Assembly (NCBI RefSeq): GCF_963921235.1
Contig: NC_086108.1
Coordinates: forward strand, 22,754,001 to 22,818,000
From: Mobula hypostoma
Taxonomy: Eukaryota
DNA: 64,000 nucleotides
Reading direction: 5' to 3'
Shown: piece after piece, positions 3,409 to 47,448 of the stretch
Numbering within the stretch: the first letter of the stretch is position 1
How the letters are laid out: every line of letters starts with the position of its first letter
Program-made: the position numbers and the translations under genes
The notes under the pieces: model-generated
Database searches by the model: none
What the model saw: the letters and a program-made list of their open reading frames with translations, nothing else
What the model was told of the DNA's origin: nothing

Positions 3409-3409
3409 A

Positions 3410-4030: not shown

Positions 4031-4124
4031 ATTTGTGATTGAGAGGGAAAGGACTTGGGGGAGGGGATGGTGGTTGATAACTATGTGAAATTGGAGATAG
4101 ATAGAGAGAGGGCAAGAATGTGTA

Positions 4125-8779: not shown

Positions 8780-8985
8780 AGTAAGTGTTGAACGAACTTC
8801 CAGTAGAAGTGGTAGAGGCAGGTTCGATATTATCATTTAAGGAAAAATTGGATAGGTATATGGACAGGAAAGGAATGGGGGGTTATGGGCTGAGTGCAGG
8901 TCAGTGGGACTAGGTGAGAGTAGCGTTCGGCACGGACTAGAAGGGCAGAGATGGCCTGTTTCCGTGCTGTAATTGTTATATGGTG
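8780..8985 (+). mobile_element. CR1 3' fragment (different family) inside the hAT
   Basis: ELPVEVVEAG...FKEKLDRYMDRKG followed by the CR1 3' stem-loop GAAGGGCAGAGATGGCCTGTTTCCGTGCTG. Confidence 0.75.
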
Positions 8986-9158
8986 ATAGAAGTCACTTAT
9001 AAGTCAATAGCATCATAACATTTTAAGTAATATTTGGATATTAAACACACGGCACATATTTTCCTTGTATGAACATATAAAATCATTGAAACACATCAAT
9101 ATCGCTGAATCAGTGGGAGCCCTGGGCTGAATACTTGTTTCCCTGCAACAAGTCGGTC

Positions 9159-9458
9159 CTATCGAGGGGTGATGGGAGACAGTGATACTCGAAGGGGGTT
9201 CCTTATGTCCAGTCTATTCCGCAATTTAGTTTTCGTTACATTCATTGCAGAGATATGTTGGAAATGGAAGCAACTTTTCAGTGCTTTCATGGCTATCTCA
9301 GGATATTTAGCCTTGACTTTGATACAGAATGCCGGCAGAGATGTTATGTCAAACATACTTTTCAGCCCGCCGTCAATTCCAAGCTCGAAGAGTTGATCTC
9401 CTTCCCGCGCTGACATGGACGATGCGCGGGTAATGACCTCGCGTGCGTTCAAGCTCAA
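9159..9458 (-). pseudogene. hAT transposase C-terminal (dimerisation domain) remnant
   Basis: SLPAF.IKVKAKYPEIAMKALK...KTKLRNRLDI.NPLRVSLSPITPR resembles Charlie/Buster (SCAND3/ZBED5-type) C-termini. Confidence 0.8.
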
Positions 9459-9572
9459 CAGTGGGCGTGACAGGGAATGAGGAAAAGTGCGGCTGACTCA
9501 TATCGTCAAATCATATCGTTTCCTCACGGCCTGGTAGCGCATGCTTTGTGGCCTGGTGGTTGGGGACCGCTG

Positions 9573-9895
9573 CCATAGAGAGATACAGCATGGAAGCAGG
9601 CCTATTGGCCCACAAAGTCTGTGCTGACCATCAGCCGCCTAATCACATGAATCCAATATTAATTGCTTTTCATTCTTAACTCCCTCTGGGTTCCACCACT
9701 CATCAGACCACCACATATCTGGGGCAATTTATACAGCCAATTAACCTATTAACTCACAAATGTTTTGGATGCGGGGCACCTGGGGGAAACCCACAATATT
9801 CCAAGGAGAATATGCAAACTCCCCAGAGATAGCACCAGAGGTCAGGATTGAACATGAATTTCTGACACTGTGAGGCAACAGCTCTACTAGCTACC
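9573..9895 (-). mobile_element. V-SINE (HE1-like); the hAT inserted in its 3' tail
   Basis: GAGAATATGCAAACTCC, GAGGTCAGGATTGAAC (B-box, reverse) and a CR1-like tail GGCCTATTGGCCCAC. Confidence 0.75.
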
Positions 9896-10124
9896 CATCT
9901 TTGTTGAGATGAAGCCTTCAGTGACTGCAGATCTTTTTCATGCTCCCAGTTACCCTCCAGAGTGATGGTCTGTGCATTAAATACAGCTCTCTGTGCTCCA
10001 TTTGCTCCCTCTATACTGGACCATGGGCTATAGAACTTCTGCCTTATGTTGGTTCACAGTTTCAATCCCTATGAAAATTCACTTCACCCACTAATCAGCA
10101 GACTGTGTCTATAGGTTGTCATAA

Positions 10125-10270
10125 ATACAGGAGATTCTGAAGATGCTGGAAATCCAGAATAACACACACACACAAGATGCTGGAGGAACTCAGCAGCTCA
10201 GGCAGAATCTGTGGTGGAATAAAGAATTGATGTTTTGGGCAGAGACCCTTTATCAGGACTGGAAAGGAAT
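10125..10270 (-). mobile_element. Penelope-like 3' terminal fragment (family A) with decayed hammerhead
   Basis: Reverse complement reads CCAGTCCTGATAAAGGGTCTCTGCCCAAAACATC...GCTGAGTTCCTCCAGCATC. Confidence 0.7.
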
Positions 10271-10364
10271 GAGAAGGAGCCAGATTGTAGGTTGAATATA
10301 TAAGATGTTTGATGTGCAAAACTTTTCCACTTACTCCCCCAGGATATTCCTGTGGTATTTCCCA

Positions 10365-10625
10365 GACCCTCTGCCGCTGGCACAAGAAGGGCATGGGCAG
10401 CAGGTGAATGGGAATACCTCCCCTTGTTGCGTTCCCTTACAAGTCGTATGTTATCCTGATTTGGGGATTGATCACTGGTTCTTCATCCTTGTGGGTATAA
10501 GTCCCACACTGCCTGCCCTAAAAGCACTGTGTGTGCACCTGCTCCAGAAGCATTGCGGTGATTCAAGAAATTCATTCCTCACCACCTCCTTGAGTGCAGT
10601 TAGGGACAGGCAATAAATGCAGGGC
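10365..10625 (+). mobile_element. Old LINE 3' end (CR1/L2 group)
   Basis: Ends TTCAAGAA...CTCACCACCTCC...TTAGGGACAGGCAATAAATGC; related fragment at ~34840-34945. Confidence 0.5.
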
Positions 10626-12639
10626 ATCCCGGGTCAGCTAGATACTGAAAAAAGATTTTAAAAGCTGACACATTCCTTTCACTTTGATCAAATGAATGAA
10701 TCACTTCCTGGTTTACAGTTTTTCTTCTACATTCCAGTTAAATTAGATTTTTATTTGCACAATGCTTTCCAAATCCCAGTTGCTTTACGATATGTCAGTT
10801 TCTGGATTGCACGTCTTGCTGTTTCATGGGTCACCATCCTCTCTGACTGCTCATTGATCTTTTTCTGACCCCTAGTGTCACAGGGATTAAAGTCGTTATT
10901 TCTTGATTGTTTAATCTTCCAGGGTATTTGTCCCTGCTCAGGTCCCAAGTAACCTGCATGATGTTCGACTCACTCCTGTAGTGTCAGTCCATAGGTTGTG
11001 GTTTTCCTTTGGTGTGACAATGACATTGTTAGTCATTGTTTGAGTTAGACCCTGGAATGTGCTTTCAGCCCTAAACCTGTATTTCAGGCTGCTTTCTGAA
11101 CCCAGTTAACTTTCACCTGTGCCCCTGTTTAAGCATCAACTACTTCTTTCCTTGTGCTGCCTAGTCTTCATCTGTGTTTGTGCTAGAGAATGGATTAAAG
11201 ATTACTATTCATGTTCTGCAATCCAGTTATATTTATCCAGAGGCTACAAACCAGATTCTATATTCCAGCAATCTCCTTCAGGCTACTCAGTGCCTTCTTC
11301 TTTTTTTCTACCGTTAGCTTGGCTCCCAAATGGCACATTTAATTTCTCTTTCTAATACATTTCATATATTCCTGACCTCTGATTTCCATTCCCTTTCTAT
11401 TCCTGACTGTTAAAATTTGTCTCCATGTCAGAGTTCTTGGTTACTCTCTTTCAATCCATTACTTACAGCTTACTCTTCTATCCTGGTTAATCCTCCTCAA
11501 AGGATTCCTGATTTATTTCTATTTCCCAATTAATCCTCCTTTGTGCCTAGTTAATGCTTTCTGTATCAATATTACCGATCTCTTTATGGACCAAGTAATT
11601 CTGATCCATTTCTCTTCATGGATACTAGATCTTCCCAATGTGGTCATTAACTCTTTATTTCAATCCCCAAATGACAGTGTTCTTTCCATTATTGCAATTA
11701 TTTCTGATTAGTACCCGGTCCTGGATAAATGATAACTCTCCACCTTGCCCCGTTCAATCACAGCTCTGCTGTGCCAGGTAACAGATTGCTACTTTTTCCT
11801 TGATCTACTTAGTAATCATCTTCCATGTCTCAGTTAATCATTCTGGTCACTCTACAGAAATCTCTGTGATCCCAGTTAATTCTGATTAGCATTTCTCTCC
11901 AGATTATAGGTAGCACATTTCTGTGTAGATTTGTGGATTATAGGTCTCTCGTGCCATTGATAATCTGACTATCCATGAATGCAGTGAAGATCTTGTTTAA
12001 TGTCCAGTTATTGGACCCCTGATTACACGCTCATTCTGCTTCAGTCTATGCGGTTTCTTGGATTATTGTTCATTTTCCATTTGTTTATTCTTAATGAGCA
12101 TTATGATTCTCTCTCTCTCTCCAATCCCCTTTGGATTGTTACTCTATCTCAATGGTTTAGTTAATTCCTGAATTATACAGCTCTCAATACTCCTCTGTGT
12201 CAGACTCCACCTTATAGATCTTTATCATTTCCAATCACAGAAAATATCAGAGGAGCCAACAAAGCTTCTTTATCTCCCTGATTTCAGGAGATTCCTCATC
12301 CAATTGGAACTTCAGTCCCTGGATGAAACCTCTCTTCTTTGGCACAAGAATGAAAGCATATGGTGGGTTATGGGCTTTGGAGGAGGGAAGGATTAGAGTG
12401 ATCTTGAAGTAGGCTAAATCATTGACTCAGCATTGTGAGCCATTGTGTGGTGAACTGTTCTCTCCAATTAATTATCCTGCATCCCAATTTATTTTCTCTC
12501 TATCCAAACTATTCCACCTCTGTTCCATATCTCTAGCCATCCCCAGGTGACACTTAACTTTTTTTTATGGTAACCTGTCATCATAATTTGTTTATTTTGG
12601 TCCTAATTGTTTCTCTCTTATGTTAATCTAAAAAAACCT

Positions 12640-12960
12640 TCACTTCGTGGAGGCACCTTGAACTGGGGCAAAAGTTTCATTAAAAAAGGAGTTGCCCTCT
12701 TTAAGGCATGCAGAGGAATTCCTTTCACTGAAAATTTGTGATCGTGTAGAACTCTCTACCTCACAGAGCTGCGGCAATGGAGTCACTAAGTATACTCAAG
12801 GATGAGACTGGCGAATACTTGAACTCCAAAGGGGTCAAAGGATTGGTTAGAATGCAGGGAGGTGATTGCAAGGATCTGCTGGGATCGGCCATGTCTTAGT
12901 GACTGGCAAAGCAGGATCAATGGACAATAGAGCTACCCCTGCTCCTTTTTCTTGGATCCT
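12640..12960 (+). mobile_element. Very old CR1 3' fragment
   Basis: Decayed RNFFTQRVV/WNSLP-like region and CR1 3' tail. Confidence 0.55.
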
Positions 12961-13252
12961 TGTTTTTAATTTCTCTTTGAAACCATGAATTCTTCTTTGT
13001 CTCTTGGCCCAAGCATTACAGATCCCTGCATCTCATTTAATCGTATTTCCTGTTAGTCAATGGGATCAAAATCTCCCTTATTATGGCCGTGAATCATTAC
13101 AGTTGTAGATCTCTCTTCATTTCCTTGTGAGTTCTCCTCTGAGTTGATACCTAGTTATAGATTTCTCTCTTTTTTTGTAATTTATTTTTTTTTGAAGTTC
13201 ATCATCAAACATTTCCATAAGATGTTGTATTTCAGATATTGTACATATATAT

Positions 13253-13941
13253 CATAGAAACATAGAAAATAGGTGCAGGAGTAGGCCATTCGGCCCTTCG
13301 AGCCTGCACCACCATTTATTATGATCATGGCTGATCATCCAACGCAGAACCCCGCCCCAGCCTTCCCTCCATACCTCCTGATCCCAGTAGCCACAAGGGC
13401 CATATCTAACTCCCTCTCAAATATAGCCAATGAACTGGCCTCAACTGTTTCCTGTGGCAGAGAATTCCACAGATTCACCACTCTCTGTGTGAAGAAGTTT
13501 TTCCTAATCTCGGTCCTAAAAGGCTTCCCCTTTATCCTCAAACTGTGACCCCTCGTTCTGGACTTCCCCAACATCGGGAACAATCTTCCTGCATCTAGCC
13601 TGTCCAATCCCTTTAGGATTTTATACATTTCAATCAGATTCCCCCTCAATCTTCTAAATTCCAAAGAGTACAAGCCCAGTTCATCCAGTCTTTCTTCATA
13701 TGAAAGTCCTGCCATCCCAGGAATCAATCTGGTGAACCTTCTTTGTACTCCCTCTAAGGCAAGGATGTCTTTCCTCAGATTAGGGGACCAAAACTGCACA
13801 CTATACTCCAGGTGTGGTCTCACCAAGGCCTTGTACAACTGCAGTAGTACCTCCCTGCTCCTGTACTTGAATCCTCTCGCTATAAATGCCAGCATACCAT
13901 TCGCCTTTTTCACCACCTGCTGTACCTGCATGCCCACTTTG
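13253..13941 (-). mobile_element. CR1 family A 3' fragment inserted in the L1 3' end
   Basis: Near-identical reverse complement of ~7830-8515 with a CATAGAAA tail. Confidence 0.95.
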
Positions 13942-15045
13942 AAGGACAACTATGTAGTTGAACCATTTTTCCCAGTATGAATCAAATTGTTCTAACATGA
14001 TTAACAGATGCTGTTATCTTCTCCATTTTGTAAATATCCATGGTAATTTCCATCCATGTGTTTAAAGTTGGGCTCCCCTGTGAATACCATTTCCTGGTAA
14101 GAGTCTTTTTACTAGCCACTAGCAGTATATTCACTAAATGTTTATCTCTTTTCAACCATTCTTGAGGTACATACCCAATATATATGGTCTTACTTTCTAA
14201 GGGTATTTCACATTTAAAAATGTCTATTAGGGCATTGTGTATCCCACTCCAATAGTCTTTGATAATGGGGCAATCCCAGAAAATATGATAATGGTTTGCA
14301 TTTTGATTTCCACAATTTCTCCAGCAAACAGGGAGGTTACTATCATAGTGGGGTTTCTGAGAGAGTGTAATAAAATATTTTATCAAGGTTTTCCACCCAA
14401 ACTCCCTCCATTTCTGTGAACTGGTACACTTCCATTGATACCTCCATATTATTGTCCATTCTTCCTCAGGTATAATTATCCCTCCTTCCTTCTCCTATTT
14501 TGTTTTAATGTATGAAGTCGAATGTGTTTCAAGATTTGACAAACCCTTATACACGCTTGAAATGATTCTACTACCGTTATCTGAATTATACGCTTTTCTA
14601 AATAGCTCTATCAAACATGTTACATTTTTGGTTACATTTTTAACCCTCCTATTAGCATACTGTTGCATCTGTAGATACCGATAGAAGTCTTGCTTTTCTA
14701 ATAAGTGTTTCTCTTTAAGCATTTCAAAATTGAACAGTGTGCCTTCTTTCATTATATTGCAAAGAACTGTTATTCCTTTAGCTGCCTAGTCCTTAAATCT
14801 AGCATCCAGTTTATTCGGCATAAAATCCGAGTCATATGTACGCCTTTTAAGAATTGCAATATCTCCCTCTAATTTATATTCTTTTATAATAGTTTTCTAT
14901 ATTTTAAGAGTCCATTTCACCCATGGATTATCAATAGTATTTATGTACCTTTGTAGGTTATCGGCCAAAATTGCCTGTATGGGGATGGGAAGTATCCCCT
15001 TCTTAATGTTTTTCCATTGAGCGTCATATGATGGGTTGCACTAAC

Positions 15046-15610
15046 ATAGTCATTGTCATACTTTATTGATCCTGGGGGAAATTGGTTTTCGTTACAGTTG
15101 CACCATAAATAATAAATAGTAATAAAACTATAAATAGTTACATAGTAATATGTAAGTTATGCCAGGAACTAAGTCCAGGACCAGCCTATTGGCTCAGGGT
15201 GTCTGACCCTCCAAGGGAGGAGTTGTGAAGTTTGAAGGGCACAGGCAGGAGTGACTTCCTATGACGCTCTGTGTTGCATCTCGGTGGAATGAGTCTCTGG
15301 CTGAATGTACTCCTGTGCCCACCCAGTACATTATGGAGTGAATGGGAGACATTGTCCAAGATGGCATGCAACTTGGACAGCATCCTCTTTTCAGACACCA
15401 CCGTCAGAGAGTCCAGTTCCATCCCCACAACATCACTGGCCTTATGAATGAGTTTGTTGATTCTGTTGGTGTCTGCTACCCTCAGCCTGCTGCCCCAGCA
15501 CGCAACAGCAAACATGATCGCACTGGCCACCACAGTCTCGTAGAATATCCTCAGCATCGTCTGGCAGATGTTAAAGGATCTCAGTCTCCTCAGGAAATAG
15601 AGACGGCTCT
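15046..15610 (-). mobile_element. Rex1/Babar-like LINE 3' fragment inserted in L1 ORF2
   Basis: FYETVVASAIMFAVACWG...HSLH...C.TER.RKS C-terminus; AATAAA followed by a GACTAT-like tandem tail. Confidence 0.85.
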
Positions 15611-18600
15611 CAACTGTGCTGCAAAATAATAATCTCTAAGAGAAGGTAGGCCCCATCCCCCCTTTTTCTTGGCTAATTGTAAAGTTTTGAGACGAACTCT
15701 AGGCCTTTTACCTTGCCATATATATCTTGATAGCATCTTGTTCTATTCATTGAATTGATTTTGGTTAATCTCTATTGGTATGGTCTGAAAGAGATATAGT
15801 AGCCTGGGCAGTATATTCATTTTAATAGATTCAATCCTTGAACTGAGACCAAGAAAGAAACTAGGTTCCATTTTGTTACATCTTCCTTAATTTTTTTTAT
15901 ATATAGGCTGATAATTGCATTCTGATAATTTTTCCAAATCTTTTGGCATAATGATGCCCAAATATTTGACAGACTCTGTTTGCCATGCCCAAGAATATCT
16001 ACTTTCAATTTCTCTTGGAGGGCTACAGTTATATGAAAGTAGTTGGGTTTTATCTATGTTGATCTTGTATCCTGATAATTGGCCATATTTTTCAAAGGAT
16101 TGCATCAATTTAGGTAAAGAGTGTGTTGGTCGCCCTAGGTAGATCAAAATATCATGCGCGTAACAGGCCAATTTATGCTCTGTCCCTTTAATAGTAATTC
16201 CCCTGATACCTTCATTTTGTCTGATGTATTAATGCGAAGAGTAGCGGTGACCATGCAATACCCTGTCTCGTGCCGCTTTCTAGGGTAAAACTATTTGATA
16301 AACATCCATTGATTTTAATCCTAGCAGTAGGGTTGTCATATAGTGCCTGTATAGTTTTAATAATTGTGTCATGGAAACCAAACCTATGTAAAACTCTGTA
16401 AAGAAAATTCCATTTAACCGAATCAAATGCCTTTTCAGCATCCACGCTTATCACTATTGCTTCGATTTTTTTTTGTCTGTGATCCATAATGTGAAGTGTC
16501 CTTCGTATATTGTCTTGTGTTTGGTGTTGTTGTATAAAACCTGTCGGATCCTTATGTATCAGTATGGGTAGAAACTCTTCTAATCATTCGGCCATGATGG
16601 AGGTAAATATTCTATAATCTACATTAAGAATGGATGTTGGTCTAAATAACCCACACTCCATTTTATCCTTGCCCTCTTTTGGTATAGCTGAAATTATTGC
16701 TTCCTTCCAGCTGGGTGGCATTTGTGCCTTTTTCAGAGCCCAGTTCAGTGAGGGAAGAAAGACAGGAATTAACTCATTTTTAAATTCTTTGTACCACTCT
16801 GCCATATACCCATCTGAACCTCGTGACTTGCTTAATTTAAGCCTACTAATTGCAGCCTTTAGTTCAACTTCAATTACGTCAGCAGTCATCGTTCTATTTT
16901 GTTCTTCGCTTAAAGTGGGTAACTCTAGAGAATTCAGGAAAGTATCAATTTGGGTTGTGCTTCTCCCTGTAACTTTGGAATATAGAGTTTTGTAAAACAT
17001 TTCAAAAGCTTCTTGAATTTCACAGCTTATTTTTTATCATTTTTGTTCTCAGATCCCTAATTCTATGAATTGTATTTTTTGCTACCGTTTTCTTCAGTTT
17101 CCAAGTCAATATTTTCATAGATTTAGATCCACTTTCATAATCTCTGTTTCAGAAACATTACATTTTTCCTGATTTCTTGCATAGCCAAACTATTAATTTC
17201 ATTCCTAATTTTTAAAATTTCCTCTAATGTATCCTGTGCCAAATTCAATTTGTGCTTTTTTCCTAGTTCCTTTAGCCTGTTTTGTAATTCCTCTGTTTTA
17301 TTCCTTATTTTTTTCTTATATGAAGATATCGCTATAATTCTCCCTTTTAAGACAGCCTTCAGAGTATCCCGTAGAATGGGAGGTGAAACCTCTCCATTAT
17401 CATTGAATTCCAAGTAAAGATCAATTTCTTTTTTAACTTGTTCTTTAAGATAGAGATCATTGAGGAGACTTGAATTTAGTTTCCAAATGGTATTCTTTGG
17501 TTGTAGGTCAAAATCAACAGATAAATATATAGGTGCATGATCACTTACATCTATTGTCCCAATTCCACAGGTGTTTATTTTGTCTTTGTCTTTTCCAAAT
17601 GTCATGAAATAGTCTATTGTTGTACATACGGAATGGGGGGCAGAATAATGAGTGTAATCCCTTCTGTCAGGGAAAAGGTCCCTCCATATATCAGTTAGAT
17701 CAACATCCTCAAAAAGTGTATTAACTCCCTTATGTAAGGATTTTGTTTCATAGGTTTTTCTTTTGGAAGAGTCTAACTTTGGTTGTAATTGTAAATTTTA
17801 AGTCTCCCCCACATATCAGGAGACCTTCTGTTTCCGTTACCATAATATTAGTAAGTTTCTGAAAGAAACTAATATCACTTCCTGGGGGTGTGTATATATT
17901 CAATAAAGTAACTGAATTTCCATCTATATTCCCCCTTACCAGAATATATCTGCCCTCTTTATCTCCCATTTTGAATACTTTTTCAAAACTTAGCTTGCTT
18001 GAGATAAGAATAGCAACTCCTCTCTTATGTCCTGATTTATATGAGGAGAAAAACAAATTAGTGAAGCCCATTCTCTTTAGTTTTCCATGCTCATTATCAC
18101 TTAAGTGGGTTTCCTGTAAATATACTAAAAGGGCTTGTTCTTTTTTCATTTTGGATAGAATTTTACTGTGCTTGATTAGATTTAACAGCACATTGACATT
18201 AAAAGAAATGAATTTAACTTTGTCCTTAGCCATATCTGTCAATATATCATTGAAATTAGCAGAATAAAATTTAATCGATCTACTCCCTGAACAAATAAGA
18301 ACCAAGAAACGTGCATAATAAAAAAAAGGCAACGAAGGTGTGATTCTAAGGCTGAGGTCTCTAGCAGATGACCCTGGGTTGAGCTAGAGGAAACGTCTAG
18401 CCGTGGGGGATAGCCCCTCCTCCCTGTGAATTGGGGGCCCCCACTACAGTACCCATAAAAGTAAGTGAACAAGTCTACATCCATTACACAGAAAAGATTT
18501 CCCTGTGTATTCCTCCCATATATATATTCTCATTTAGGTGGGGGAAAAGGAGTGAATAAATGAATAAAAAATATTGAGTAATATAAAATCCACATTATAA

Positions 18601-21718: not shown

Positions 21719-23110
21719 CTCATGGTTAAGGCAGATGCTGGATCTTATGCCCAAAATTGCTCCTCGTGTACAATGAAGTAGCTTAAGGAATTCAAAGATG
21801 TCAGTCATTTCTCCCCAATGTTGATATAAAATGTCAGAGGTTGGTAGTTGGTGAAATGATTGACAGTAGGAAGACGAAAACTATGAATGCTTCAATAGTG
21901 GAAACACTAGGGAAAGTAGCAGTAACGTTCTGATTTTTGTGTTTGTCCAACTTGCTGGAAAATTGTTACTGAAATTGCTTCATGTACACTTTTGGACAGT
22001 GCGTTCTCTATCATAACAATCAGCTTTGTAATTACTTTCTTCCCTCATCTCTCCCGTGTTTATTTTGCTAATTGTGTCTGTGCACCTTGCCACAGTTATC
22101 TCCATCTCTGCAGTTTGGTTCCCATTATTCATTTCCTCATAACCCTTAAAGATTTTTTGAAAAGTTTTATCAAGCTTCCCTTACACCTTCTCTAATGAAA
22201 GGAGAAAAATCCTCAATGTATTTATGTGTAATCTGTAAATAATGCTGGAAGATGTAGAAATGTTATCACTTGTACGTAAAGGACATAAGCATCTGTAGGC
22301 AGCTTCTTGTTGTCAGTATAGAACAACTCCCCTCTTCCTGTAACTCTCACTGTAAATCGAATTTATCTGCAGTGTCCACAGTCCACTTTAGAATGCATTA
22401 CCACTGGAGACAAAGTAAGTTGGAAGCAGCAGGAAAAGTGGAAAAACAAAACTGGGGAAAAGAAACGGTGCGGCTTATTTACCTGAGGACTCAGTGAAAA
22501 CTCCAAGGCTACAACCAAAAATCCGCAGTGAATAGGCCCCTATGTTGAATATGTGGGTTGCCTGGGTCAGTTCAAAGGAAGTCAAAGGGAGCGCCAGCCA
22601 CGTCTGTGAAACAGAAGGTGCACTGGGCAATTTCTAACACAAAATGTAGGCAAGTCCGGAAATAATGGAGCATCAGCACAGTTTCTCTTATGGAGTCATA
22701 AAGAGGAAATCTGCACAATATTTCAGGTGCTGCAGCTGACCGAACAGTTTATTTGCACAGCAACTGTGTTAAAAAACAGCAATAGCAAGAGACAGCAACA
22801 CTTTATGATCACAGTCCCGGCTGATAGGAAGTTATTACAGATGTGCAAACTGTTCTTTGCTGGAAGAGGGCACATGTGACAAGCACTTCAGTACATATGT
22901 CCCCTGGTTTACATCTCCTCCACTTCCCTTAAAACCATGCCATTTTCCTTCACCTCCTTTAATGATTCTTTCTGTTGAATTAGATCTCATTTTCCTGTGC
23001 ACTGCCACTTATTGTTCACTTCACCAGTTTGTCCACCACCTCCTGAGGGCACACACAATATCCCTTGCCCATATTATGCCAGCTATAATTAATTCCAGGT
23101 TATAGATATA

Positions 23111-25572
23111 TATAGAAACATAGAAACATAGAAAATAGGTGCAGGAGTAGGCCATTTGGCCCTTCGAGCCTGCACCGCCATTTATTATGATCATGGCTGA
23201 TCATCCAACTCAGAACCCCGCCTCAGCCTTCCCTCCATACCCCCTGATCCCCATAGCCACAAGGGCCATATCTAACTCCCTCTTAAATATAGCCAGTGAA
23301 CTGGCCTCAACTGTTTCCTGTGGCAGAGAATTCCACAGATTCACCACTCTCTGTGTGAAGAAGTTTTTCCTAATCTCGGTCCTAAAAGGATTCCCCTCTA
23401 TCCTCAAACTGTGACCCCTCATTCTGGACTTCCCCAACATCGGGAACAATCTTCCTGCATCTAGCCTGTCCAATCCCTTTAGGATCTTATACGTTTCAAT
23501 CAGATCCCCCCTCAATCTTCTAAATTCCAACGAGTACAAGCCCAGTTCATCCAGTCTTTCTTCATATGAAAGTCCTGCCATCCCAGGAATCAATCTGGTG
23601 AACCTTCTTTGTACTCCCTCTATGGCAAAGATGTCTTTCCTCAGATTAGGGGACCAAAACTGCACACAATACTCCAGGTGTGGTCTCACCAAGGCCTTGT
23701 ACAACTGCAGTAGTACCTCCCTGCTCCTGTACTCGAATCCTCTCGCTATAAATGCCAGCATACCATTCGCCTTTTTCACCGCCTGCTGTACCTGCATGCC
23801 CACTTTAAATGACTGGTGTATAATGACACCCAGGTCTCGTTGCACCTCCCCTTTTCCTAAATGGCCACCATTCAGATAATAATCTGTTTTCCTATTTTTG
23901 CCACCAAAGTGGATAACTTCACATTTATCCACATTAAATTGCATCTGCCATGAATTTGCCCACTCACCCAACCTATCCAAGTCACCCTGCATCCTCTTAG
24001 CATCCTCCTCACTGCTAACACTGCCACCCAGCTTCGTGTTATCCGCAAACTTGGAGATGCTGCATTTAATTCCCTCATCCAAGTCATTAATATATATTGT
24101 AAACAACTGGGGTCCCAGCACTGAGCCTTGCGGTACCCCACTAGTCACCGCCTGCCATTCTGAAAAGGTTCCGTTTATTCCCACTCTTTGCTTCCTGTCT
24201 GCTAACCAATTCTCCACCCACACCAATACCTTACCCCCAATACCGTGTGCTTTAAGTTTGCACACTAATCTCCTGTGTGGGACCTTGTCAAAAGCCTTTT
24301 GAAAATCCAAATATACCACATCCACTGGTTCTCCCCTATCCACTCTACTAGTTACATCCTCAAAAAATTCTATGAGATTCGTCAGACATGATTTTCCTTT
24401 CACAAATCCATGCTGACTTTGTCCGATCATTTCACCGCTTTCCAAATGTGCTGTTATCACATCCTTGATAACTGACTCCAGCAGTTTCCCCACCACCGAC
24501 GTTAGGCTAACCGGTCTATAATTCCCCAGTTTCTCTCTCCCTCCTTTTTTAAAAAGTGGGGTTACATTAGCCACCCTCCAATCCTCAGGAACTAGTCCAG
24601 AATCTAACAAGTTTTGAAAAATTATCACTAATGCATCCACTATTTCTTGGGCTACTTCCTTAAGCACTCTATAATGCAGACCATCTGGCCCTGGGGATAT
24701 ATCTGCCTTCAATCCCTTCAATTTACCTAACACCACTTCCCTACTAACATGTATTTCGCTCAGTTCCTCCATCTCACTGGACCCTCTGTCCCCTACTATT
24801 TCTGGAAGATTATTTATGTCCTCCTTAGTGAAGACAGAACCAAAGTAATTATTCAATTGGTCTGCCATGTCCTTGCTCCCCATAATCAATTCACCTGTTT
24901 CTGTCTGCAGGGGACCTACATTTGTCTTTACCAGTCTTTTCCTTTTTACATATCTATAAAAGCTTTTACAGTCTGTTTTTATGTTCCCTGCCAGTTTTCT
25001 CTCATAATCTTTTTTCCCCTTCCTAATTTTTCCTTTTTACATATCTATAAAAGCTTTTACAGTCCGTTTTTATGTTCTCTGCCAGTTTTCTCTCATAATC
25101 TTTTTTCCCCTTCCTAATTAAGCCCTTTGTCCTCCTCTGCTGAACTCTGAATTTCTCCCAGTCCTCAGGTGAGCCACTTTCTCTGGCTAATTTGTATGCT
25201 TCTTCTTTGGAATTGATACTATCCCTAATTTCTCTTGTCAGCCACGGGTGCACTACCTTCCTTGATTTATTCTTTTGCCAAACTGGGATGAACAATTGTT
25301 GTAGTTCATCCATGCAACCTTTAAATGCTTGCCATTGCATATCCACCGTCAATCCTTTAAGTGTCATTTGCCAGTCTATCTTAGCTAATTCACGTCTCAT
25401 ACCTTCAAAGTTACCCCTCTTTAAGTTCAGAACCTTTGTTTCTGAATTAACTATGTCACTCTCCATCTTAATGAAGAATTCCACCATATTATGGTCACTC
25501 TTACCCAAGGGGCCTCTCACGACAAGATTGCTAATTAACCCTTCCTCATTGCTCAAAACCCAGTCCAGAATA
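23111..25572 (-). mobile_element. CR1 family A, 5'-truncated, with a 91-bp internal duplication
   Basis: ORFs 23210-24889 and 25023-25556 match the 5.6-kb copy; RT FADD is mutated to FADN; (CATAGAAA)n tail. Confidence 0.96.
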
Positions 25573-26450: not shown

Positions 26451-27378
26451 GATGAGACCTTAACAAACTTGTTTTGTGATCTAATATTTACAGTCACAGG
26501 ATCATCTCTACTTTGATACTTCCCCAAAGAGCCCAGTTGTTAGTCAACAAAGATTAGAAGAGGGATAGCTGATTCCCTGTGTTGGGAAACTATTATTTTG
26601 CAAGACATCTCCCTGGATACTATTCCAAGTGACAACATATCCATGCCTTCTGTTTAAAAGTAACTGGTTAGACGGAAGTGCATTCAGAAAATGTGTTCAG
26701 CTTCCATAAGATAATATCACAGTCATATCTGGATCCCATCGTAGAACTCAGACTAACTGACACATTTTTGGTACCCAGGGGCTGAATATTATGTAATATT
26801 AATATTAATATTATATTAATATTATTATCCAGTAGTAGGAAAAGCCATTATTAAATTTTGTTGCCCTCAATTAATTTTTAGCCTTGTTTTTTGGGGAGAT
26901 TCCAATTAATTTGGATGTAAATGGAGCAAGAGAGGTGGCTTTACTGTCTAGGCTATATTCAGCTTACTCAGCTGGCTTCTGGAGATAAAGTGAAGTGTGG
27001 GTCCCATGGGAGGTGGAATAAGTTGTTTATGAAATTAACACATACCTCATGCACGACTTGAGACTTGAATGAATAATTCTCACTGAGCCACATCCTTCAG
27101 GAGAGGCATTCCAGATAAAAACCCGTGTTAAAGACATCCAAGCTCATAGAGGTAGTCATAGTTTTGGAGTGGGGTGGGGCAGTGATGCAGGAGATGGAAG
27201 AGGTCTGGTGGATCTGTGGTGGGATGGGGAGAGGGTTGCACTTAAAGTATCTGGCATTCAGGAGAGGCAGTCATGGTCACTAATTGAAAGCTGTTATGAT
27301 AACAAAACCTGCCAAAGGACATTGAATAATATTTGAGAATTCTGGTATTACATGACAAACCCAACACTTAAGAAATCA

Positions 27379-27580
27379 ACACACACAAAATGCTGGAGGA
27401 GCTCAGCAGGCCAGGTAGCATCTATGGAAAAGAGTACAATCGACATTTCAGGCCAAAACCCAGTTCTTGGCTCAAAATGACGACTGTACTCTTTTCCATA
27501 GATGCTGCCTGGCCTGCTGAGTTCCTCCAGCATTTTTTATGTTGCTTGGATTTCCAACATCTGCAGATTTTTTCTTGTAT
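27379..27580. mobile_element. Fold-back element made of two inverted Penelope family A termini
   Basis: Arms of ~75 bp (27380-27460 and 27465-27541) are reverse complements with few mismatches. Confidence 0.85.
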
Positions 27581-29130: not shown

Positions 29131-29295
29131 CTATGCTAAAGGAACTTTATAATACATTATTGAAGCAAGCCCTTCAGCCCTGTGGGTCAGCAGTGACCCA
29201 CCAAGTACTCACTTACACTGGAAATCATTCAGAAAATATGTAGCTCGGGTGCTTGATCATTGGGTTGACTTGTTCTCCGATCTTGGCAACTTACT

Positions 29296-29338
29296 TGCAA
29301 ACATTTCATCACCATTCAAGGAGATATCATCAGTGTGC
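29296..29338 (-). ncRNA. Minimal type I hammerhead motif (family B), CpG-decayed
   Basis: Reverse complement GCACA-CTGATGA-TATCTCCTTGAATGGTGAT-GAAA-TGTT-TGCA. Confidence 0.55.
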
Positions 29339-29557
29339 TGCTGATTGGGGTGTGTCCTCCATGTAGTGTCAGTTATAGGCCACCAATTAAACACTCAATG
29401 GCATGGTCAGGCAGAACAGGAAATGAACAGTTGCCACACAACCAATCAGATGAGATTTCCTCCCCACTTCACAATTGAGTTTCTGAAATGGTGACCAATC
29501 AGCCGATTGATAAGTATAGAAAGGCCAAGCATTTGGAGGACACGCCACAATCAGCAG

Positions 29558-29599
29558 TGCACTGATGATGTCTGCTCATATTGTGATGAAGCATTTGCA
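29558..29599 (+). ncRNA. Minimal type I hammerhead motif (family B), decayed
   Basis: TGCA-CTGATGA-TGTCTGCTCATATTGTGAT-GAAG-CATT-TGCA; helix I TGCA/TGCA. Confidence 0.55.
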
Positions 29600-30000
29600 A
29601 ATAAATTACCAAGATTGGAGAACAAGTCTACTGAACCATTAACCACCCGATCTGCACATTTTCTGAATTATTTCCTACAGCTTTGGGCCTTAAATACTTA
29701 AATGTGCTCACCATCAGAAGAACTTTGCCTGCAGGCAAGCCTCCTCACGGGAGCAACTCTTCTTCCTCCATGAATGCTTAAGGCAAAATATGCTGTCACA
29801 AAGCGACAGTTGCAGGCCACCAATCAACCACCCAATGCCATGGTCTATCGCCTGGCAGAACAGGAGATGTTTGGGTGCCACACAGCCAATCAGTGATGTG
29901 ATTTCCTCCCCACATCACAACTGTTTCCAAAATGGGGACCAATCAGTTCACTGATAAGTATATAAAGGTAAAGCATTTGGAGGACACACCACAATCAACA

Positions 30001-30043
30001 GCACACTGATGACATTCCCTCATATGGTGATGAAATATTTGCA
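30001..30043 (+). ncRNA. Minimal type I hammerhead motif (family B), decayed
   Basis: GCACA-CTGATGA-CATTCCCTCATATGGTGAT-GAAA-TATT-TGCA. Confidence 0.5.
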
Positions 30044-32462
30044 AGTAAATTGTCAAGATCAGAGAACAACTTTATGCAGGAAACATAAAGTTGTGGTGGT
30101 AGGGGATTTTAATTTTCCATATATTGATTGGGACTCCCATACTGTTAGGGGTCTAGATGGTTTAGAGTTTGTAAAATGCGTTCAGGAAAGTTTTCTAAAT
30201 CAATATATGGAGGGACCAACTAGAGGGGATGCAATACTGGATCTCCTGTTAGGAAACGAGTTAGGACAAGTGACAGAAGTCTGTGTAGGGGAGCACTTTG
30301 GTTCCAGTGATCATAACACCATTAGTTTCAACTTGATCATGGACAAGGATAGATCTGGCCCTAGGGTTGAGGTTCTGAACTGGAAGAAGGCCAAATTTGA
30401 AGAAATGAGAAAGGATCTAAAAAGCGTGGATTGGGACAGGTTGTTCTCTGGCAAAGATATGATTGGTAAGTGGGAAGCCTTCAAAGGAGAAATTTTGAGA
30501 GTGCAGAGTTTGTATGCTCCTGTCAGGATTAAAGGCAAAGTGAATAGGAATAAGGAACCTTGGTTCGCAAGGGATATTGCAACTCTGATAAAGAAGAAGA
30601 GGAAGTTGTATGAAATGTATAGGAAACAAGGAGTAAATCAGGTGCTTGAGGAGTATAAGAAGTGCAAGAAAATACTTAAGAAAGAAATCAGGAGGGCTAA
30701 AAGAAGACATGAGGTTGCCTTGGCAGTCAAAGTGAAGGATAATCCAAAGAGCTTTTACAGGTATATTAAGAGCAAAAGGATTGTAAGGGATAAAATTGGT
30801 CCTCTTGAAGATCAGAGTGGTCAGCTATGTGCAGAACCAAAGGAAATGGGGGAGATCTTAAATAGGTTTTTTGCGTCTGTATTTACTAAGGAAACTGGCA
30901 TGAAGTCTATGGAATTAAGGGAATCAAGTAGTGAGATCATGGAAACTGTACAGATTGAAATGGAGGAGGTGCTTGCTATCTTGAGGAAAATTAAAGTGGT
31001 TAAATCCCCGGGACTTGACAGGGTGTTCCCTTGGACCTTGAAGGAGACTAGTGTTGAAATTGCGGGTGCCCTGGCAGAAATATTTAAAATGTTGCTGTCT
31101 ACAGGTGAGGTGCCGGAGGATTGGAGAGTGGCTCATGTTGTTCCGTTGTTTAAAAAAGGATCGAAAAGTAATCCGGGAAATTATAGGCCAGTAAGTTTAA
31201 CATCGGTAGTAGGTAAGTTATTGGAGGGAGTACTAAGAGACAGAATCTACAAGCATTTGGATAGACAGGGACTTATTAGGGAGAGTCAACATGGCTTTGT
31301 GCGTGGTAGGTCATGTTTGACCAATCTACTGGCATTTTTCGAGGAGGTTACCAGGAAAGTGGATGAAGGGAAGGCAGTGGATATTGTCTACATGGACTTC
31401 AGTAAGGCCTTTGACAAGGTCCCGCATGGGAGGTTAGTTAGGAAAATTCAGTCGCTAGGTATATATGGAGAGGTGGTAAATTGGATTAGACATTGGCTCA
31501 ATGGAAGAAGCCAAAGAGTGGTAGTAGAGAATTGCTTCTCTGAGTGGAGGCCTGTGACTAGTGGTGTGCCACAGGGATCAGTGCTGGGTCTATTGTTATT
31601 TGTCATCTATATCAATGATCTGGATGATAATGTGGTAAATTGGATCAGCAAATTTGCAGATGATACAAAGATTGGAGGTGTAGTAGACAGTGGGGAAGGT
31701 TTTCAGAGCCTGCAGAGGAACTTGGACCAGCTGGAAAAATGGGCTGAAAAATGGCAGATGGAGTTTAATACAGACAAGTGTGAGGTATTGCACGTTGGAA
31801 GGACAAACCAAGGTAGAACATACAGGGTTAATGGTAAGGCACTGAGGAGTGCAGTAGACCAGAGGGATCTGGGAATACAGATACAAAATTCCCTAAAAGT
31901 GGCGTCACAGCTAGATAGGGTCGTAAAGAGAGCTTTTGATACATTGGCCTTTATTAATCAAAGTATTGAGTATAAGAGCTGGAATGTAATGATGAGGTTG
32001 TATAAGGCATTGGTGAGGCCGAATCTGGAGTATTGTGTTCAGTTTTGGTCACCAAATTACAGGAAGGATATAAATAATTTTGAAAGGGTGCAGAGAAGGT
32101 TTACAAGGATGTTGCCAGGACTTGAGAAACTCAGTTACAGAGAAAGGTTGAATAGGTTGGGACTTTATTCCCTGGAGCGTAGAAGAATGAGGGGAGATTT
32201 GATAGGGGTATATAAAATTATGATGGGTATAGATAGAGTGAATGCAAGCAGGCGTTTTCCACTGAGGCAAGGGGAGAAAAAAACCAGAGGACATGGGTTA
32301 AGGGTGAAGGGGGAAAAGTTTAAAGGGAACATTAGGGGGGGCTTCTTCACACAGAGAGTGGTGGGAATATGGAATGAGCTGCCAGATGAGGTGGTAAATG
32401 CGGGTCCTTTTTTAACATTTAGGAATAAATTGGACAGATACATGGATGGGAGTTGTATATAG
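30009..32462 (+). CDS. CR1 ORF2 (partial APE + RT), open frame of 817 aa
   Basis: GDFN, SDH, NYRPVSL, DFSKAFD, GVPQGSVLG, FADD; first ~22 codons come from the flanking repeat. Confidence 0.85.
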   Translation: MTFPHMVMKYLQVNCQDQRTTLCRKHKVVVVGDFNFPYIDWDSHTVRGLDGLEFVKCVQESFLNQYMEGPTRGDAILDLLLGNELGQVTEVCVGEHFGSSDHNTISFNLIMDKDRSGPRVEVLNWKKAKFEEMRKDLKSVDWDRLFSGKDMIGKWEAFKGEILRVQSLYAPVRIKGKVNRNKEPWFARDIATLIKKKRKLYEMYRKQGVNQVLEEYKKCKKILKKEIRRAKRRHEVALAVKVKDNPKSFYRYIKSKRIVRDKIGPLEDQSGQLCAEPKEMGEILNRFFASVFTKETGMKSMELRESSSEIMETVQIEMEEVLAILRKIKVVKSPGLDRVFPWTLKETSVEIAGALAEIFKMLLSTGEVPEDWRVAHVVPLFKKGSKSNPGNYRPVSLTSVVGKLLEGVLRDRIYKHLDRQGLIRESQHGFVRGRSCLTNLLAFFEEVTRKVDEGKAVDIVYMDFSKAFDKVPHGRLVRKIQSLGIYGEVVNWIRHWLNGRSQRVVVENCFSEWRPVTSGVPQGSVLGLLLFVIYINDLDDNVVNWISKFADDTKIGGVVDSGEGFQSLQRNLDQLEKWAEKWQMEFNTDKCEVLHVGRTNQGRTYRVNGKALRSAVDQRDLGIQIQNSLKVASQLDRVVKRAFDTLAFINQSIEYKSWNVMMRLYKALVRPNLEYCVQFWSPNYRKDINNFERVQRRFTRMLPGLEKLSYRERLNRLGLYSLERRRMRGDLIGVYKIMMGIDRVNASRRFPLRQGEKKTRGHGLRVKGEKFKGNIRGGFFTQRVVGIWNELPDEVVNAGPFLTFRNKLDRYMDGSCI

Positions 32463-32562
32463 TCCATGTGCAGGTCAGTGGGACTAGGCAGAAAATGGTT
32501 CGGCACAGCCAAGAAGGGCCAAAAGGCCTGTTTCTGTGCTGTAGTTCCTATGGTTTCTATGG
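30075..32562 (+). mobile_element. CR1 LINE family B, 5'-truncated, inserted in the third family-B unit
   Basis: CR1 ORF2 from VVVVGDFNFP to the C-terminus; tail CCTATGGTTTCTATGG; host repeat resumes AACAGCTCAACCCAAT. Confidence 0.95.
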
Positions 32563-32599
32563 TTAACAGCTCAACCCAATCACTCACTTACACTCTTAT

Positions 32600-41645: not shown

Positions 41646-41819
41646 AATGAACAGCATTCTGACATAAGAGTTGGGGCTGTCCAGGTGGGTCAGGGCAGAA
41701 TGAAGTGCCGTGGAGATGGCGTTCTCTGTCGACCTGTTGGTGCGATAGGCAAATTGATGGGGGTCCAGGGTAGTGGGCAGACAGGATTTCAGATGTGATA
41801 GAACCAGTCTCTCAAAGCA

Positions 41820-43735
41820 CTTAATTAGGAAGGGGAAAAAAGATTATGAGAGAAAACTGGCAGAGAACATAAAAACGGACTGTAAAAGCTTTTATAGATA
41901 TGTAAAAAGGAAAAGACTGATAAAGACAAATGTAGGTCCCCTGCAAACAGAAACAGGTGAATTGATTATGGGGAGCAAGGACATGGCAGACCAATTGAAT
42001 AATTACTTTGGTTCTGTCTTCACTAAGGAGGACATAAATAATCTTCCAGAAATAGTAAGGGACAGAGGGTCCAGTGAGATGGAGGAACTGAGCGAAATAC
42101 ATGTTAGTAGGGAAGTGGTGTTAGGTAAATTGAAGGGATTGAAGGCAGATAAATCCCCAGGGCCAGATGGTCTGCATCCCAGAGTGCTTAAGGAAGTGGC
42201 CCAAGAAATAGTGGATGCATTAGTGATAATTTTTCAAAACTCGTTAGATTCTGGACTAGTTCCTGAGGATTGGAGGGTGGCTAATGTAACCCCACTTTTT
42301 AAAAAAGGAGGGAGAGAGAAACCGGGGAATTATAGGCCGGTTAGCCTAACGTCGGTGGTGGGGAAACTGCTGGAGTCAGTTATCAAGGATGTGATAACAG
42401 CACATTTGGAAAGCGGTGAAATGATCGGACAAAGTCAGCATGGATTTGTGAAAGGAAAATCATGTCTGACGAATCTCATAGAATTTTTTGAGGATGTAAC
42501 TAGTAGAGTGGATAGGGGAGAACCAGTGGATGTGGTATATTTGGATTTTCAAAAGGCTTTTGACAAGGTCCCACACAGGAGATTAGTGTGCAAACTTAAA
42601 GCACATGGTATTGGGGGTAAGGTATTGGTGTGGGTGGAGAATTGGTTAGCAGACAGGAAGCAAAGAGTGGGAATAAACGGGACCTTTTCAGAATGGCAGG
42701 CGGTGACTAGTGGGGTACCGCAAGGCTCAGTGCTGGGACCCCAGTTGTTTACAATATATATTAATGACATGGATGAGGGAATTAAATGCAGCATCTCCAA
42801 GTTTGCGGATGACACGAAGCTGGGTGGCAGTGTTAGCAGTGAGGAGGATGCTAAGAGGATGCAGGGTGACTTGGATAGGTTGGGTGAGTGGGCAAACTCA
42901 TGGCAGATGCAATTTAATGTGGATAAATGTGAAGTTATCCACTTTGGTGGCAAAAATAGGAAAACAGATTATTATCTGAATGGTGGCCGATTAGGAAAAG
43001 GGGAGGTGCAACGAGACCTGGGTGTCATTATACACCAGTCATTGAAAGTGGGCATGCAGGTACAGCAGGCGGTGAAAAAGGCGAACGGTATGCTGGCATT
43101 TATAGCGAGAGGATTCGAGTACAGGAGCAGGGAGGTACTACTGCAGTTGTACAAGGCCTTGGTGAGACCACACCTGGAGTATTGTGTGCAGTTTTGGTCC
43201 CCTAATCTGAGGAAAGACATCCTTGCCATAGAGGGAGTACAAAGAAGGTTCACCAGATTGATTCCTGGGATGGCAGGTCTTTCATATGAAGAAAGACTGG
43301 ATGAACTGGGCTTGTACTCGTTGGAATTTAGAAGATTGAGGGGGGATCTGATTGAAACGTATAAGATCCTAAAGGGATTGGACAGGCTAGATGCGGGAAG
43401 ATTGTTCCCGATGTTGGGGAGGTCTAGAACGAGGGGTCACAGTTTGAGGATAGAGGGGAAGCCTTTTAGGACCGAGGTTAGGAAAAACTTCTTCACACAG
43501 AGAGTGGTGAATCTGTGGAATTCTCTGCCACAGCAAACTGTTGAGGCCAGTTCATTAGCTATGTTTAAAAGGAAGTTAGATATGGCCCTTGTGGCTACAG
43601 GGGTCACGGGGTATGGAGGGAAGGCTGGGTTCTGAGTTGGATGATCAGCCATGATCATAATAAATGGCGGTGCAGGCTCGAAGGGCCGAATGGCCTACTC
43701 CTGCACCTATTTTCTATGTTTCTATGTTTCTATGT
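41820..43735 (+). mobile_element. CR1 family A, 5'-truncated, inserted in the Rex1-like LINE
   Basis: 5' microhomology CTTAAT with host CACTTAATGATGG; (TTTCTATG)3 tail; RT frame open to 43635. Confidence 0.96.
41821..43635 (+). CDS. CR1 ORF2 RT portion, uninterrupted
   Basis: NYRPVSL, DFQKAFD, GVPQGSVLGP, FADD. Confidence 0.88.
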   Translation, partial: LIRKGKKDYERKLAENIKTDCKSFYRYVKRKRLIKTNVGPLQTETGELIMGSKDMADQLNNYFGSVFTKEDINNLPEIVRDRGSSEMEELSEIHVSREVVLGKLKGLKADKSPGPDGLHPRVLKEVAQEIVDALVIIFQNSLDSGLVPEDWRVANVTPLFKKGGREKPGNYRPVSLTSVVGKLLESVIKDVITAHLESGEMIGQSQHGFVKGKSCLTNLIEFFEDVTSRVDRGEPVDVVYLDFQKAFDKVPHRRLVCKLKAHGIGGKVLVWVENWLADRKQRVGINGTFSEWQAVTSGVPQGSVLGPQLFTIYINDMDEGIKCSISKFADDTKLGGSVSSEEDAKRMQGDLDRLGEWANSWQMQFNVDKCEVIHFGGKNRKTDYYLNGGRLGKGEVQRDLGVIIHQSLKVGMQVQQAVKKANGMLAFIARGFEYRSREVLLQLYKALVRPHLEYCVQFWSPNLRKDILAIEGVQRRFTRLIPGMAGLSYEERLDELGLYSLEFRRLRGDLIETYKILKGLDRLDAGRLFPMLGRSRTRGHSLRIEGKPFRTEVRKNFFTQRVVNLWNSLPQQTVEASSLAMFKRKLDMALVATGVTGYGGKAGF

Positions 43736-44799
43736 AATGATGGGGGTGAGTGCAATTGGACGGAAGTCATTCAGGCCCTTGGCAATGGAATGCTTTGGCA
43801 CTGGCACGATGGTGGTGATCTTGAAGCTTGTGGGGACAACTGCCTGGGCCAGGGACAGATTAAAAATGTCCGTGAAGACCCCGGCCAACTGCCCTGCACA
43901 GACTCTGAGCACACAGCCAGGTATTCCATCCGGACCAGCTGCCTTCCGTATATTCACCCTAGTGGATGGATGTTTAATAAGCAAGGAGGTAGAAGGTTAC
44001 AATTAGATCATCTTTGATCTTGAAGGGGTTGCAGTCTCAAGGGGCTGAGTGTTCCTAATTTGGATGAGACACCTGGATACATGATCTACTCTGACTCATG
44101 TTACAAGGAAAGTTGATTGGAAGATATGAGAAACACTGTGACAAGTTGGGTTTTGGAAGGACTATTTAAAATAAAATGGGACATAGGGCAAATGCATTTT
44201 TATACTGAAATGGAAAGTGGGAAAATTCCATTCAAGTAAGATGTGAAGCATGATATGAAATAGAGGGAAAGTAAAAGTGTACCAATATGTTTGTTTACAG
44301 AAATTCCAACAAGATATAAGGATTCTCTCAATGATAATTTACCCAAATCACCACACAGCAGTAGAAAAGCTGACCCTGTCTGGAACACGAGGCAAGGATG
44401 CAGAGTGCAGGTGGGGTGTATGATTAGAGCTGGGGATCCTGCGGAGATAGGATTGGGATCTGGAATATGGGTAGGTTTGAGGCCAGAGCGGTGTACCAGA
44501 GTGTCATAGTCAAAGAGAGATTCAGGCTCTTCCGTCCACTGAGTTTGCACTGATCATTAACCACCCATTTACATGAAACCCCTATTATTATTTAATAATA
44601 ATATTATTTTATTCTCACCAAATTCTCATAAACTCCACCCAGATTCCACCAGCCACCTACACATTAGGAGCAACTTCCAGTATTTGCGTATTTCCTTTTT
44701 CCTTTTCAGCTCAGTGTGTTCATTGGAACATTTATTGTACTGCTATGTCACAAGTTTAGAAAAAGAGATGTAAAAGTGTATTTGGGTACGAGTGGAAGT

Positions 44800-46862: not shown

Positions 46863-46955
46863 CCTGTAACATGGGCTTGGTTATGTTGCACCATTGTGAT
46901 TGAGTTCAAACTAGCAGACCAGACTGATGATGTCACTTAGCAGATCAAATATGGT

Positions 46956-47448
46956 AAACACGAGGAATTCTGCAGATGCTGGAAATTCAAGCAACACACA
47001 TCAAAGTTGCTGGTGAACGCAGCAGGCCAGGCAGCATCTCTAGGAAGAGGTACAGTCGACGTTTCGGGCCGAGACCCTTTGTGGGGACTAACTGAAGGAA
47101 GAGATAGTAAGAGATTTGAAAGTGGGAGGGGGAGGGGGAGATCCAAAATGATAGGAGAAGACAGGAGGGGGAGGGATGGAGCCAAGAGCTGGACAGGTGA
47201 TTGGCAAAAGGGATATGAGAGGATCATGGGACAGGAGGCCCAGGGAGAAGGAAAAGTGGGGGGGGGGGGAAACCCAGAGGATGGGCAAAGGGTATAGTCA
47301 GAGGGACAGAGGGAGAAAAAGGAGAGAGAGAGAAAGAATATGTGTATATAAATAAATAACAGATGGGGTATGAGGGGGAGGTGGGGCATTAGTGAAAGTT
47401 AGAGAAGTCAATGTTCATGCCATCAGGTTGGAGGCTACCCAGACGGAA
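46956..47448 (-). mobile_element. Penelope-like element 3' part (family A), relatively young
   Basis: Minus strand encodes FRLGSLQPDGMNIDFSNFH* (GIY-YIG-type ORF end), then a CT-rich UTR and the hammerhead-bearing terminus. Confidence 0.85.
47053..47090 (-). ncRNA. Minimal type I hammerhead motif with intact helix II and GAAAC-GUC but a mutated CUGANGA box
   Basis: Reverse complement TAGTC-CCCACAA-A-GGGT-CTCG-GCCC-GAAAC-GTC-GACTG. Confidence 0.6.

Follow-up and report, generated by a model that had tools for sequence, protein, structure and literature searches.

Insertions of endonuclease-bearing (EN+) Penelope-like elements (PLEs), such as those of the Pen2a_Av type, carry two direct end repeats (pseudo-long terminal repeats, pLTRs) with an adjacent inverted 5'-truncated pLTR, are bracketed by one target-site duplication (TSD) with a tail of 30-40 bp at one end, and hold the first codons of the open reading frame (ORF) and a TATA box within the pLTR (PMC3846280, PMC8557442; here and below, statements on cited papers refer to excerpts of their texts). 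For Poseidon_Ac of Anolis carolinensis, the tail has been tied to two internal start sites of the reverse transcriptase (RT) (PMC11167929), while minimal hammerhead ribozymes of PLEs occur as opposite-strand pairs 100-700 bp apart (PMC4209133), and animal retrozymes, including those of one cartilaginous fish, have been argued to derive from PLE pLTRs (10.64898/2026.07.22.740005). The locus described here, at 29207-32594 of a 64-kb stretch from Mobula hypostoma (the window; all positions are window coordinates), shows the same anatomy, with the ORF start and TATA box in the pLTR, a partial tandem plus inverted copy, the tail and the TSD, and is probably one old, decayed insertion of an internally deleted PLE with a unit of 444 nt, copied in trans by its abundant parent family from a linear RNA of more than unit length. 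A preliminary description had confined the locus to 29220..30070 and taken it for an ORF-less array of hammerhead repeats, either retrozyme-like or of Penelope pLTRs.

Far from being ORF-less, the locus retains the decayed N-terminus of a Penelope/Poseidon-type ORF, to which tblastn of PLE proteins on the window aligns P0150 (56% over 100 aa, E 5e-30), P0007 (47% over 102 aa) and P0002 (46% over 97 aa). The first residue of these relatives falls on the ATGs at 29565 and 29568, the latter being A9-U9.1-G10.1 of the hammerhead, and a frameshift in the remnant was rejected, as the homology runs in a single frame to at least 29867. The other two units repeat the first 20-35 codons, and codons 77 onward recur at 29359 (29359-29409), with 29359-29433 matching aa 77-93 of P0002, aa 85-100 of P0007 and aa 237-252 of P0153 in tblastn. 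A 40-aa stretch of the supposed spacer leads to an 824-aa RT protein of Dicrocoelium (E 9e-6; one match from one candidate), which has an RVT_1 match and, by eye, a C-terminal GIY-YIG-like motif, and a protein scan with a 59-aa stretch returned 16 matches at E<=0.001. Both P0002 and P0007 are full length, with an RVT_1 match for P0002 and, by eye, a C-terminal endonuclease motif without the CX2-5CxxC linker finger in both, a region that is missing from the locus. Judged from these relatives, membership in the Penelope/Poseidon clade is likely; P0154, with seven repeated weak matches at an alignment E of 0.17 or worse, was set aside as a relative. While an autonomous EN+ PLE encodes RT and GIY-YIG endonuclease in its ORF, the window holds the N-terminus only, and the element is non-autonomous, as had been supposed.

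The 444-nt unit joins ORF codons 1 to ~103 to an end region of ~135 nt with CCAAT boxes and a TATA box, motifs which, by analogy with the elements of PMC3846280, make a promoter role of this region likely. As the relatives measure ~830 aa, ~2 kb have been lost from the unit. The junction between ORF and end region created by this deletion occurs twice, at 29433/4 and 29877/8, which argues that the copying of a non-autonomous mini-element went beyond a single unit and establishes 444 nt, first proposed from the spacing of the hammerheads, as a real unit length. Among 121 proteins, no convincing match between a PLE C-terminus and the end region was found.

Because a 13-bp TSD unique in the window encloses all parts, the inverted arm, the 1.6 direct units and a nested long interspersed nuclear element (LINE) are one insertion: the 13-mer occurs twice in the whole window, and none of 1042 control tiles had a match of >=10 nt. 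The three related units noticed earlier, one on the minus strand (29296-29337) and two direct, whose cores (29562 and 30006) are spaced by 444 nt, are borne out by pairwise blastn (direct pair 79% over 265 nt, E 3.6e-61; inverted pairs E 2.1e-32 and 5.7e-27), the minus-strand unit matching the direct units at 80% and 87% identity. With 17, 12 and 17 differences in 92 nt in the three pairwise comparisons, the direct units are mutually no closer than either is to the inverted arm. The equally anticipated CpG decay is reflected in the common 94-nt block, where CpG-like pairs hold 12 of the 24 variable columns, at a window CpG of 0.26 of expected. The inverted arm measures 142 nt and the direct arm ~720 nt, and the outward-facing ends of the element lie at +108 from the ATG on the left and at ~+70 on the right, 38 nt apart in the element. 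The LINE, which we take to be of CR1 type, lies between two 7-nt flanks, 30065-30071 and 32565-32571, that share 6 bases, and the last bases of copy 3 recur beyond it at 32565-32581. Neither blastn nor nhmmer revealed further family copies in the window, a weak match at 54565-54587 being unrecovered by nhmmer. The parts of the locus are compiled in the table.

Table. Features of the PLE insertion and of the LINE nested in it, in window coordinates.
Feature	Position	Strand	Remarks
TSD, left copy, 13 bp	29207..29219	.	identical to 32582-32594; abuts inverted arm
Copy 1, inverted 5'-truncated arm, -34 to +108 from ATG at A9	29220..29361	-	80% to 29534-29675
Copy 1 tail, ~38 nt, at long 3' end	~29220-29257	-	family contigs exit element at equivalents of +108 and ~+70
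Minimal hammerhead, copy 1	29296..29337	-	core intact; helix I 2 bp; helix II 5/6 pairs; U.G at 15.2-16.2; start codon lost
Inversion centre, 3 bases common to inverted arm and first codon of direct ORF remnant	29359..29361	.	sequence reading; tblastn start 29359
Copy 2, 5'-truncated start, ORF codons 77 to ~100	29359..29433	+	56/75 aligned bases equal 29796-29877
Copy 2 end region, likely promoter	29434..29557	+	CCAAT 29442 and 29495, TATA damaged; starts at first deletion junction
Minimal hammerhead, copy 2	29558..29599	+	A15.1 to G; helix II 3/6 pairs; helix I 4 bp; ATGs 29565, 29568
Decayed N-terminus, Penelope/Poseidon-type ORF, codons 1 to ~103	29565..29877	+	one frame, 3 stops; homology to 29867, last codons presumed
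Copy 3 end region, likely promoter	29878..30001	+	CCAAT 29886 and 29939, TATA box 29959; starts at second deletion junction
Minimal hammerhead, copy 3	30002..30043	+	core intact; helix I 2 bp; helix II 5/6 pairs; U-A at 15.2-16.2; second ATG lost
Younger 5'-truncated LINE, endonuclease and RT, nested in 3' end of copy 3	30072..32564	+	stop-free frame 29958-32462
Copy 3 remainder 3' of LINE, ending at short 3' end (~+70, without tail)	32565..32581	+	matches family continuation in loose ends at 29625, 30071
TSD, right copy, 13 bp	32582..32594	.	13/13 bases equal left copy

The wider family was followed in the best-supported contigs of four public runs (X2, X8, X10 and X21), in which depth is no copy number. 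The 4412 contigs placed from X2 concentrate their depth on the pLTR and, at the right edge, on the LINE, with a summed depth of 1057-17927 in the pLTR bins at 29446-29697 against 57-195 at 29698-29865 and ~9.5 for the locus itself. Variant rows comprise 1-14 contigs in the ORF part versus 49-125 in the pLTR (counted up to 128), and the unit-specific ORF part is rare in the contigs of all four runs. The pLTR belongs to an abundant PLE family; a 444-nt family was not seen in the contigs. Loose ends with low-agreement AT-rich flanks lie at 29675 (58, 39 and 7 contigs in X2, X10 and X21) and at 29260 (98, 56 and 68 contigs in X2, X8 and X10), and since the contigs leave the element at the same two places at which the locus ends, these places are read as natural element ends and the stretch between them as the PLE tail. 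In X10, 28 contigs have a different sequence upstream of 29878, which would represent the normal 3' region of the parent. One run, possibly that of the source, has contigs that cross the inversion centre and both junctions and show no differences there, a near-identical contig from organism B extends across 29524-30000, and contigs from organisms B and D cross the left end; because these organisms have matching contigs, the insertion is real and older than the split of the contig-bearing organisms. The bin 29362-29403 has no contig cover in X8, X10 and X21, a gap that supports no inference, and X21, an RNA run by guess only, contains family copies and says nothing on the present locus. In metagenome scans, the family motif had 0 matches, and 359 pattern matches to the protein alignment yielded 0 confirmed ones.

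This distribution bears on the reading of the preliminary description, by which the 444-nt unit would be a retrozyme family that propagates itself across the genome. A tandem unit with a hammerhead in every copy would suit such a family, as would the argued descent of animal retrozymes from PLE pLTRs, but the depth of the unit-specific part in X2 stays far below that of the pLTR bins, the hammerhead is of the PLE minimal type without canonical retrozyme features, Tandem Repeats Finder (TRF) reports no array and the core of copy 2 is broken. An ordinary pLTR bears the hammerhead and PLE ORF makes up what remains of the unit, and ordinary pLTRs of ORF-bearing Penelope elements, which the preliminary description itself had named as speaking against a retrozyme, are largely what was found, so that this reading, largely refuted, retains hardly any probability.

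For the insertion of an internally deleted PLE, the following course can be proposed. The RT-endonuclease of the parent family would have copied the deleted template in trans, nicking both strands 13 nt apart and starting cDNA synthesis at +108 and ~+70, two internal sites a short way into the ORF, as in vitro work on the anole element suggests. The short cDNA of 142 nt would have given the inverted arm and the long one of ~720 nt, or 1.6 units, the usual PLE partial tandem of a truncated unit followed by a full one, the unit being so short that the truncated copy extends beyond the deletion junction. Both cDNAs were likely joined at the 3-nt overlap; the LINE inserted later into the 3' end of copy 3, and the PLE insertion has since decayed. 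At 29554 and 29626, copies 1 and 2 agree on a letter that departs from the family letter kept by copy 3, which fits, if weakly, non-identical pLTRs on a linear template.

Several observations weigh against this course or its linear template. By estimate, chance alone would give roughly 0.4 such common-letter sites, and the comparison covers 40 of the 360 rows of the difference table. At the position of 29570, a letter foreign to the family is common to copies 1 and 3, and conversion between the inverted arms could mimic the letters common to copies 1 and 2. Of the 11 bases that precede each junction, 6 differ between the two, with a 7-nt indel just upstream, and the junctions, equal in position, are not provably inherited from one deletion. 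Neither a parent locus nor a sibling with the same junction is among the contig rows, where a rare one would escape, and linear and circular templates predict an identical layout.

The same mini-element and PLE enzyme might have used a 444-nt circle, with the two hammerheads of a single transcript (pLTR, deleted ORF, pLTR) cutting as a dimer, the monomer being ligated and the RT running 1.6 rounds; the locus would then be a fossil of rolling-circle reverse transcription of a hammerhead-excised monomer by the RT of its parent. A circle would give the junction twice from just one deleted source copy, the 444-nt spacing of two minimal hammerheads is suited to cleavage as a dimer, a route proposed for PLEs (PMC4209133), and the unit falls within the length range of retrozymes. 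A circle should, however, have given copies without initial differences, whereas two sites of copy 3 still carry the family letter where copies 1 and 2 agree on another (a weak point), anole hammerhead mutants still insert and RNA-seq ends are not reported at the cut site (PMC11167929), and 8 of 9 Xenopus dimers failed to cleave (10.64898/2026.07.22.740005). Moreover, more-than-unit copying is needed for every PLE partial tandem, so that the layout needs no special cause. A rolling-circle origin is therefore unlikely, and preference goes to a linear template over a circle made by the ribozyme, although the release of a 444-nt monomer, as once proposed, is possible for a source element. If the rolling-circle origin were true, the locus would record the step from PLE to retrozyme, and minimal hammerheads would act in vertebrate PLE transposition.

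Somewhat more doubtful still is a full-length PLE that was rearranged after insertion by internal deletion, unequal crossover between pLTRs and loss of the palindrome centre. Inverted repeats with a short spacer are unstable, and the unit-specific sequence is rare in the contigs. Internal deletions of PLE copies have been reported (PMC3846280); however, three separate events are required, and a later duplication should make copies 2 and 3 the closest pair, which the divergences contradict.

As for the hammerheads, the motif alone is not significantly better than chance. An Rfam search, as had been suggested, returned 6 matches at E<=10, none of them a hammerhead, a two-box pattern gave 11 matches versus 7.5 expected (19 of 100 shuffles reach 11), and a minimal-hammerhead descriptor, written after the motif had been seen, matched all three copies and only these, which count as one, but also gave at least one match in 8 of 60 shuffles. 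The motif is read as a hammerhead because it sits at the start of a PLE ORF, and on this basis the earlier assignment to the Penelope-related minimal type holds. The core (C3-A9, G12-A15.1, U16.1 and H17) is complete in two of the three copies, with G at 15.1 in copy 2, for which a cut is predicted after 29595; all copies have the extra base between 9 and 10.1 and no helix III. Positions 10.1-11.1 read A-U, G.U and A-U in copies 1, 2 and 3, so that the combination typical of PLE minimal hammerheads, G10.1-C11.1 with a 4-5-bp helix I and a long helix II, is not seen, which together with the weak helices may be read as decay. Of the consensus first proposed, the extra T after CTGATGA is the majority letter of the family, whereas a C at 11.1 is present in none of the copies and family contigs have CGCA instead of TGCA 5' of the core. 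Position 9.1 was dropped as a family CpG, since family contigs read TG.

No copy folds more stably than its shuffles (z 0.66, -0.08 and 0.40; n=3), and the hammerhead fold lies 3.8-10.8 kcal/mol above the best fold in the copies and a rule-built ancestor; the present-day hammerheads are predicted to be passengers of the pLTR, inactive or nearly so. Since the hammerhead boxes overlap codons conserved in the relatives, conservation of the motif may stem from the protein, and the core kept in three copies is, by an estimated chance of 0.05-0.2 for 10 unchanged sites, no evidence of selection. For copies 1 and 3, the best folds allow the leader immediately 5' of the hammerhead (29550-29569 and its equivalents) to pair with the CUGAUGA box and the first start codon, possibly as an alternative hairpin that would block cleavage.

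The named relatives of the ORF remnant come mostly from parasitic flatworms. Its N-terminus (29565-29867) shares 46-54% with fluke PLE proteins and 34% with a bamboo-shark protein (P0002, P0003, P0004, P0150-P0158), four of the top 10 N-terminal matches looked up are named, all of them flukes, as is P0003, and the named ones among the best 120 RT-region relatives of a fluke protein are tapeworms and flukes except for one shark and one goby, in a sample seeded by the fluke query and with shark elements poorly annotated. In a rapid tree of 38 selected proteins, not run to completion, the shark element groups with fluke elements at a support of 90 (bar 95). Horizontal transfer of this PLE lineage between flatworms and fish, parasites and hosts, is only a lead from these sequence comparisons, and a literature search by title found no paper on PLE transfer between flatworms and cartilaginous fish. 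In the fluke gene models P0003 and P0153, the same pLTR is apparently inverted or duplicated beside the ORF start, which suggests the same insertion anatomy mis-annotated as host genes.

Elsewhere in the window, hammerhead-like boxes mark another repeat family, unrelated to the first and presumably also a PLE, at 3292-3411, 10122-10277, 27374-27578 and 46955-47089, its copy at 27381-27542 being a palindrome with 76-nt arms. One LINE family has four young copies, 95-99% alike (5489-8525, 13239-13947, 23100-25572 and 41758-43736), the third with a 92-nt inverted segment at 24937-25119, and its 3' end breaks a short-period minisatellite (85-1211) at 846-1000. Two inverted pairs lie at 36164-36855/37805-38490 (91% over 693 nt, with ALKBH8_N Pfam matches) and at 57981-58159/58670-58848 (99% over 179 nt).

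Compared with animal non-LTR retrozymes, the locus shares a tandem unit that is non-autonomous and measures a few hundred nt, a type I hammerhead and the derivation from PLEs (PMC7229834, 10.64898/2026.07.22.740005), but its hammerhead is minimal, more than two thirds of the unit are PLE ORF and amplification as a unit is not seen. The canonical type I hammerhead with a 6-bp helix I and loop-loop contacts and the amplified monomer family by which retrozymes were recognized in 2020 are absent here, the latter in the contigs of the four runs, and a TRF tandem with >=2 consecutive complete hammerheads, as used in 2026, is likewise lacking, no 444-nt array being found by TRF at settings that differ from those of the paper. 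With the minimal hammerheads of metazoan PLEs (PMC4209133), the locus has in common the missing helix III, the extra base 9/10.1, the short helix I and the palindromic 15.2-16.2, unlike these, it lacks G10.1-C11.1 in all copies and forms at most 5 of 6 pairs in helix II. As in Poseidon_Ac (PMC11167929), the ORF starts at hammerhead stem II, with the cut ~26 nt downstream there and 28 nt here, and two RT start sites lie inside the ORF in AC-rich sequence; Poseidon_Ac is autonomous and active, whereas the present copy is non-autonomous and decayed, with flanks of only 51-53% AT.

Non-autonomous PLEs of Chlamys such as MRC1 (PMC8557442) are likewise PLE derivatives that make pLTRs and head-to-tail insertions, although they belong to another PLE clade and host and form active families instead of one decayed locus. 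Unlike in Pen2a_Av-type insertions, the ORF between the pLTRs is cut here to ~103 codons and the upstream copy crosses the deletion junction, which therefore appears twice. The repeated junction marks more-than-unit copying, which may proceed by read-through, a template jump or a circle. The element is of a known kind, nothing in the data points to a distinct family of self-cleaving RNAs, and the locus is probably an ordinary example of PLE insertion anatomy, that of an internally deleted PLE mobilised in trans.

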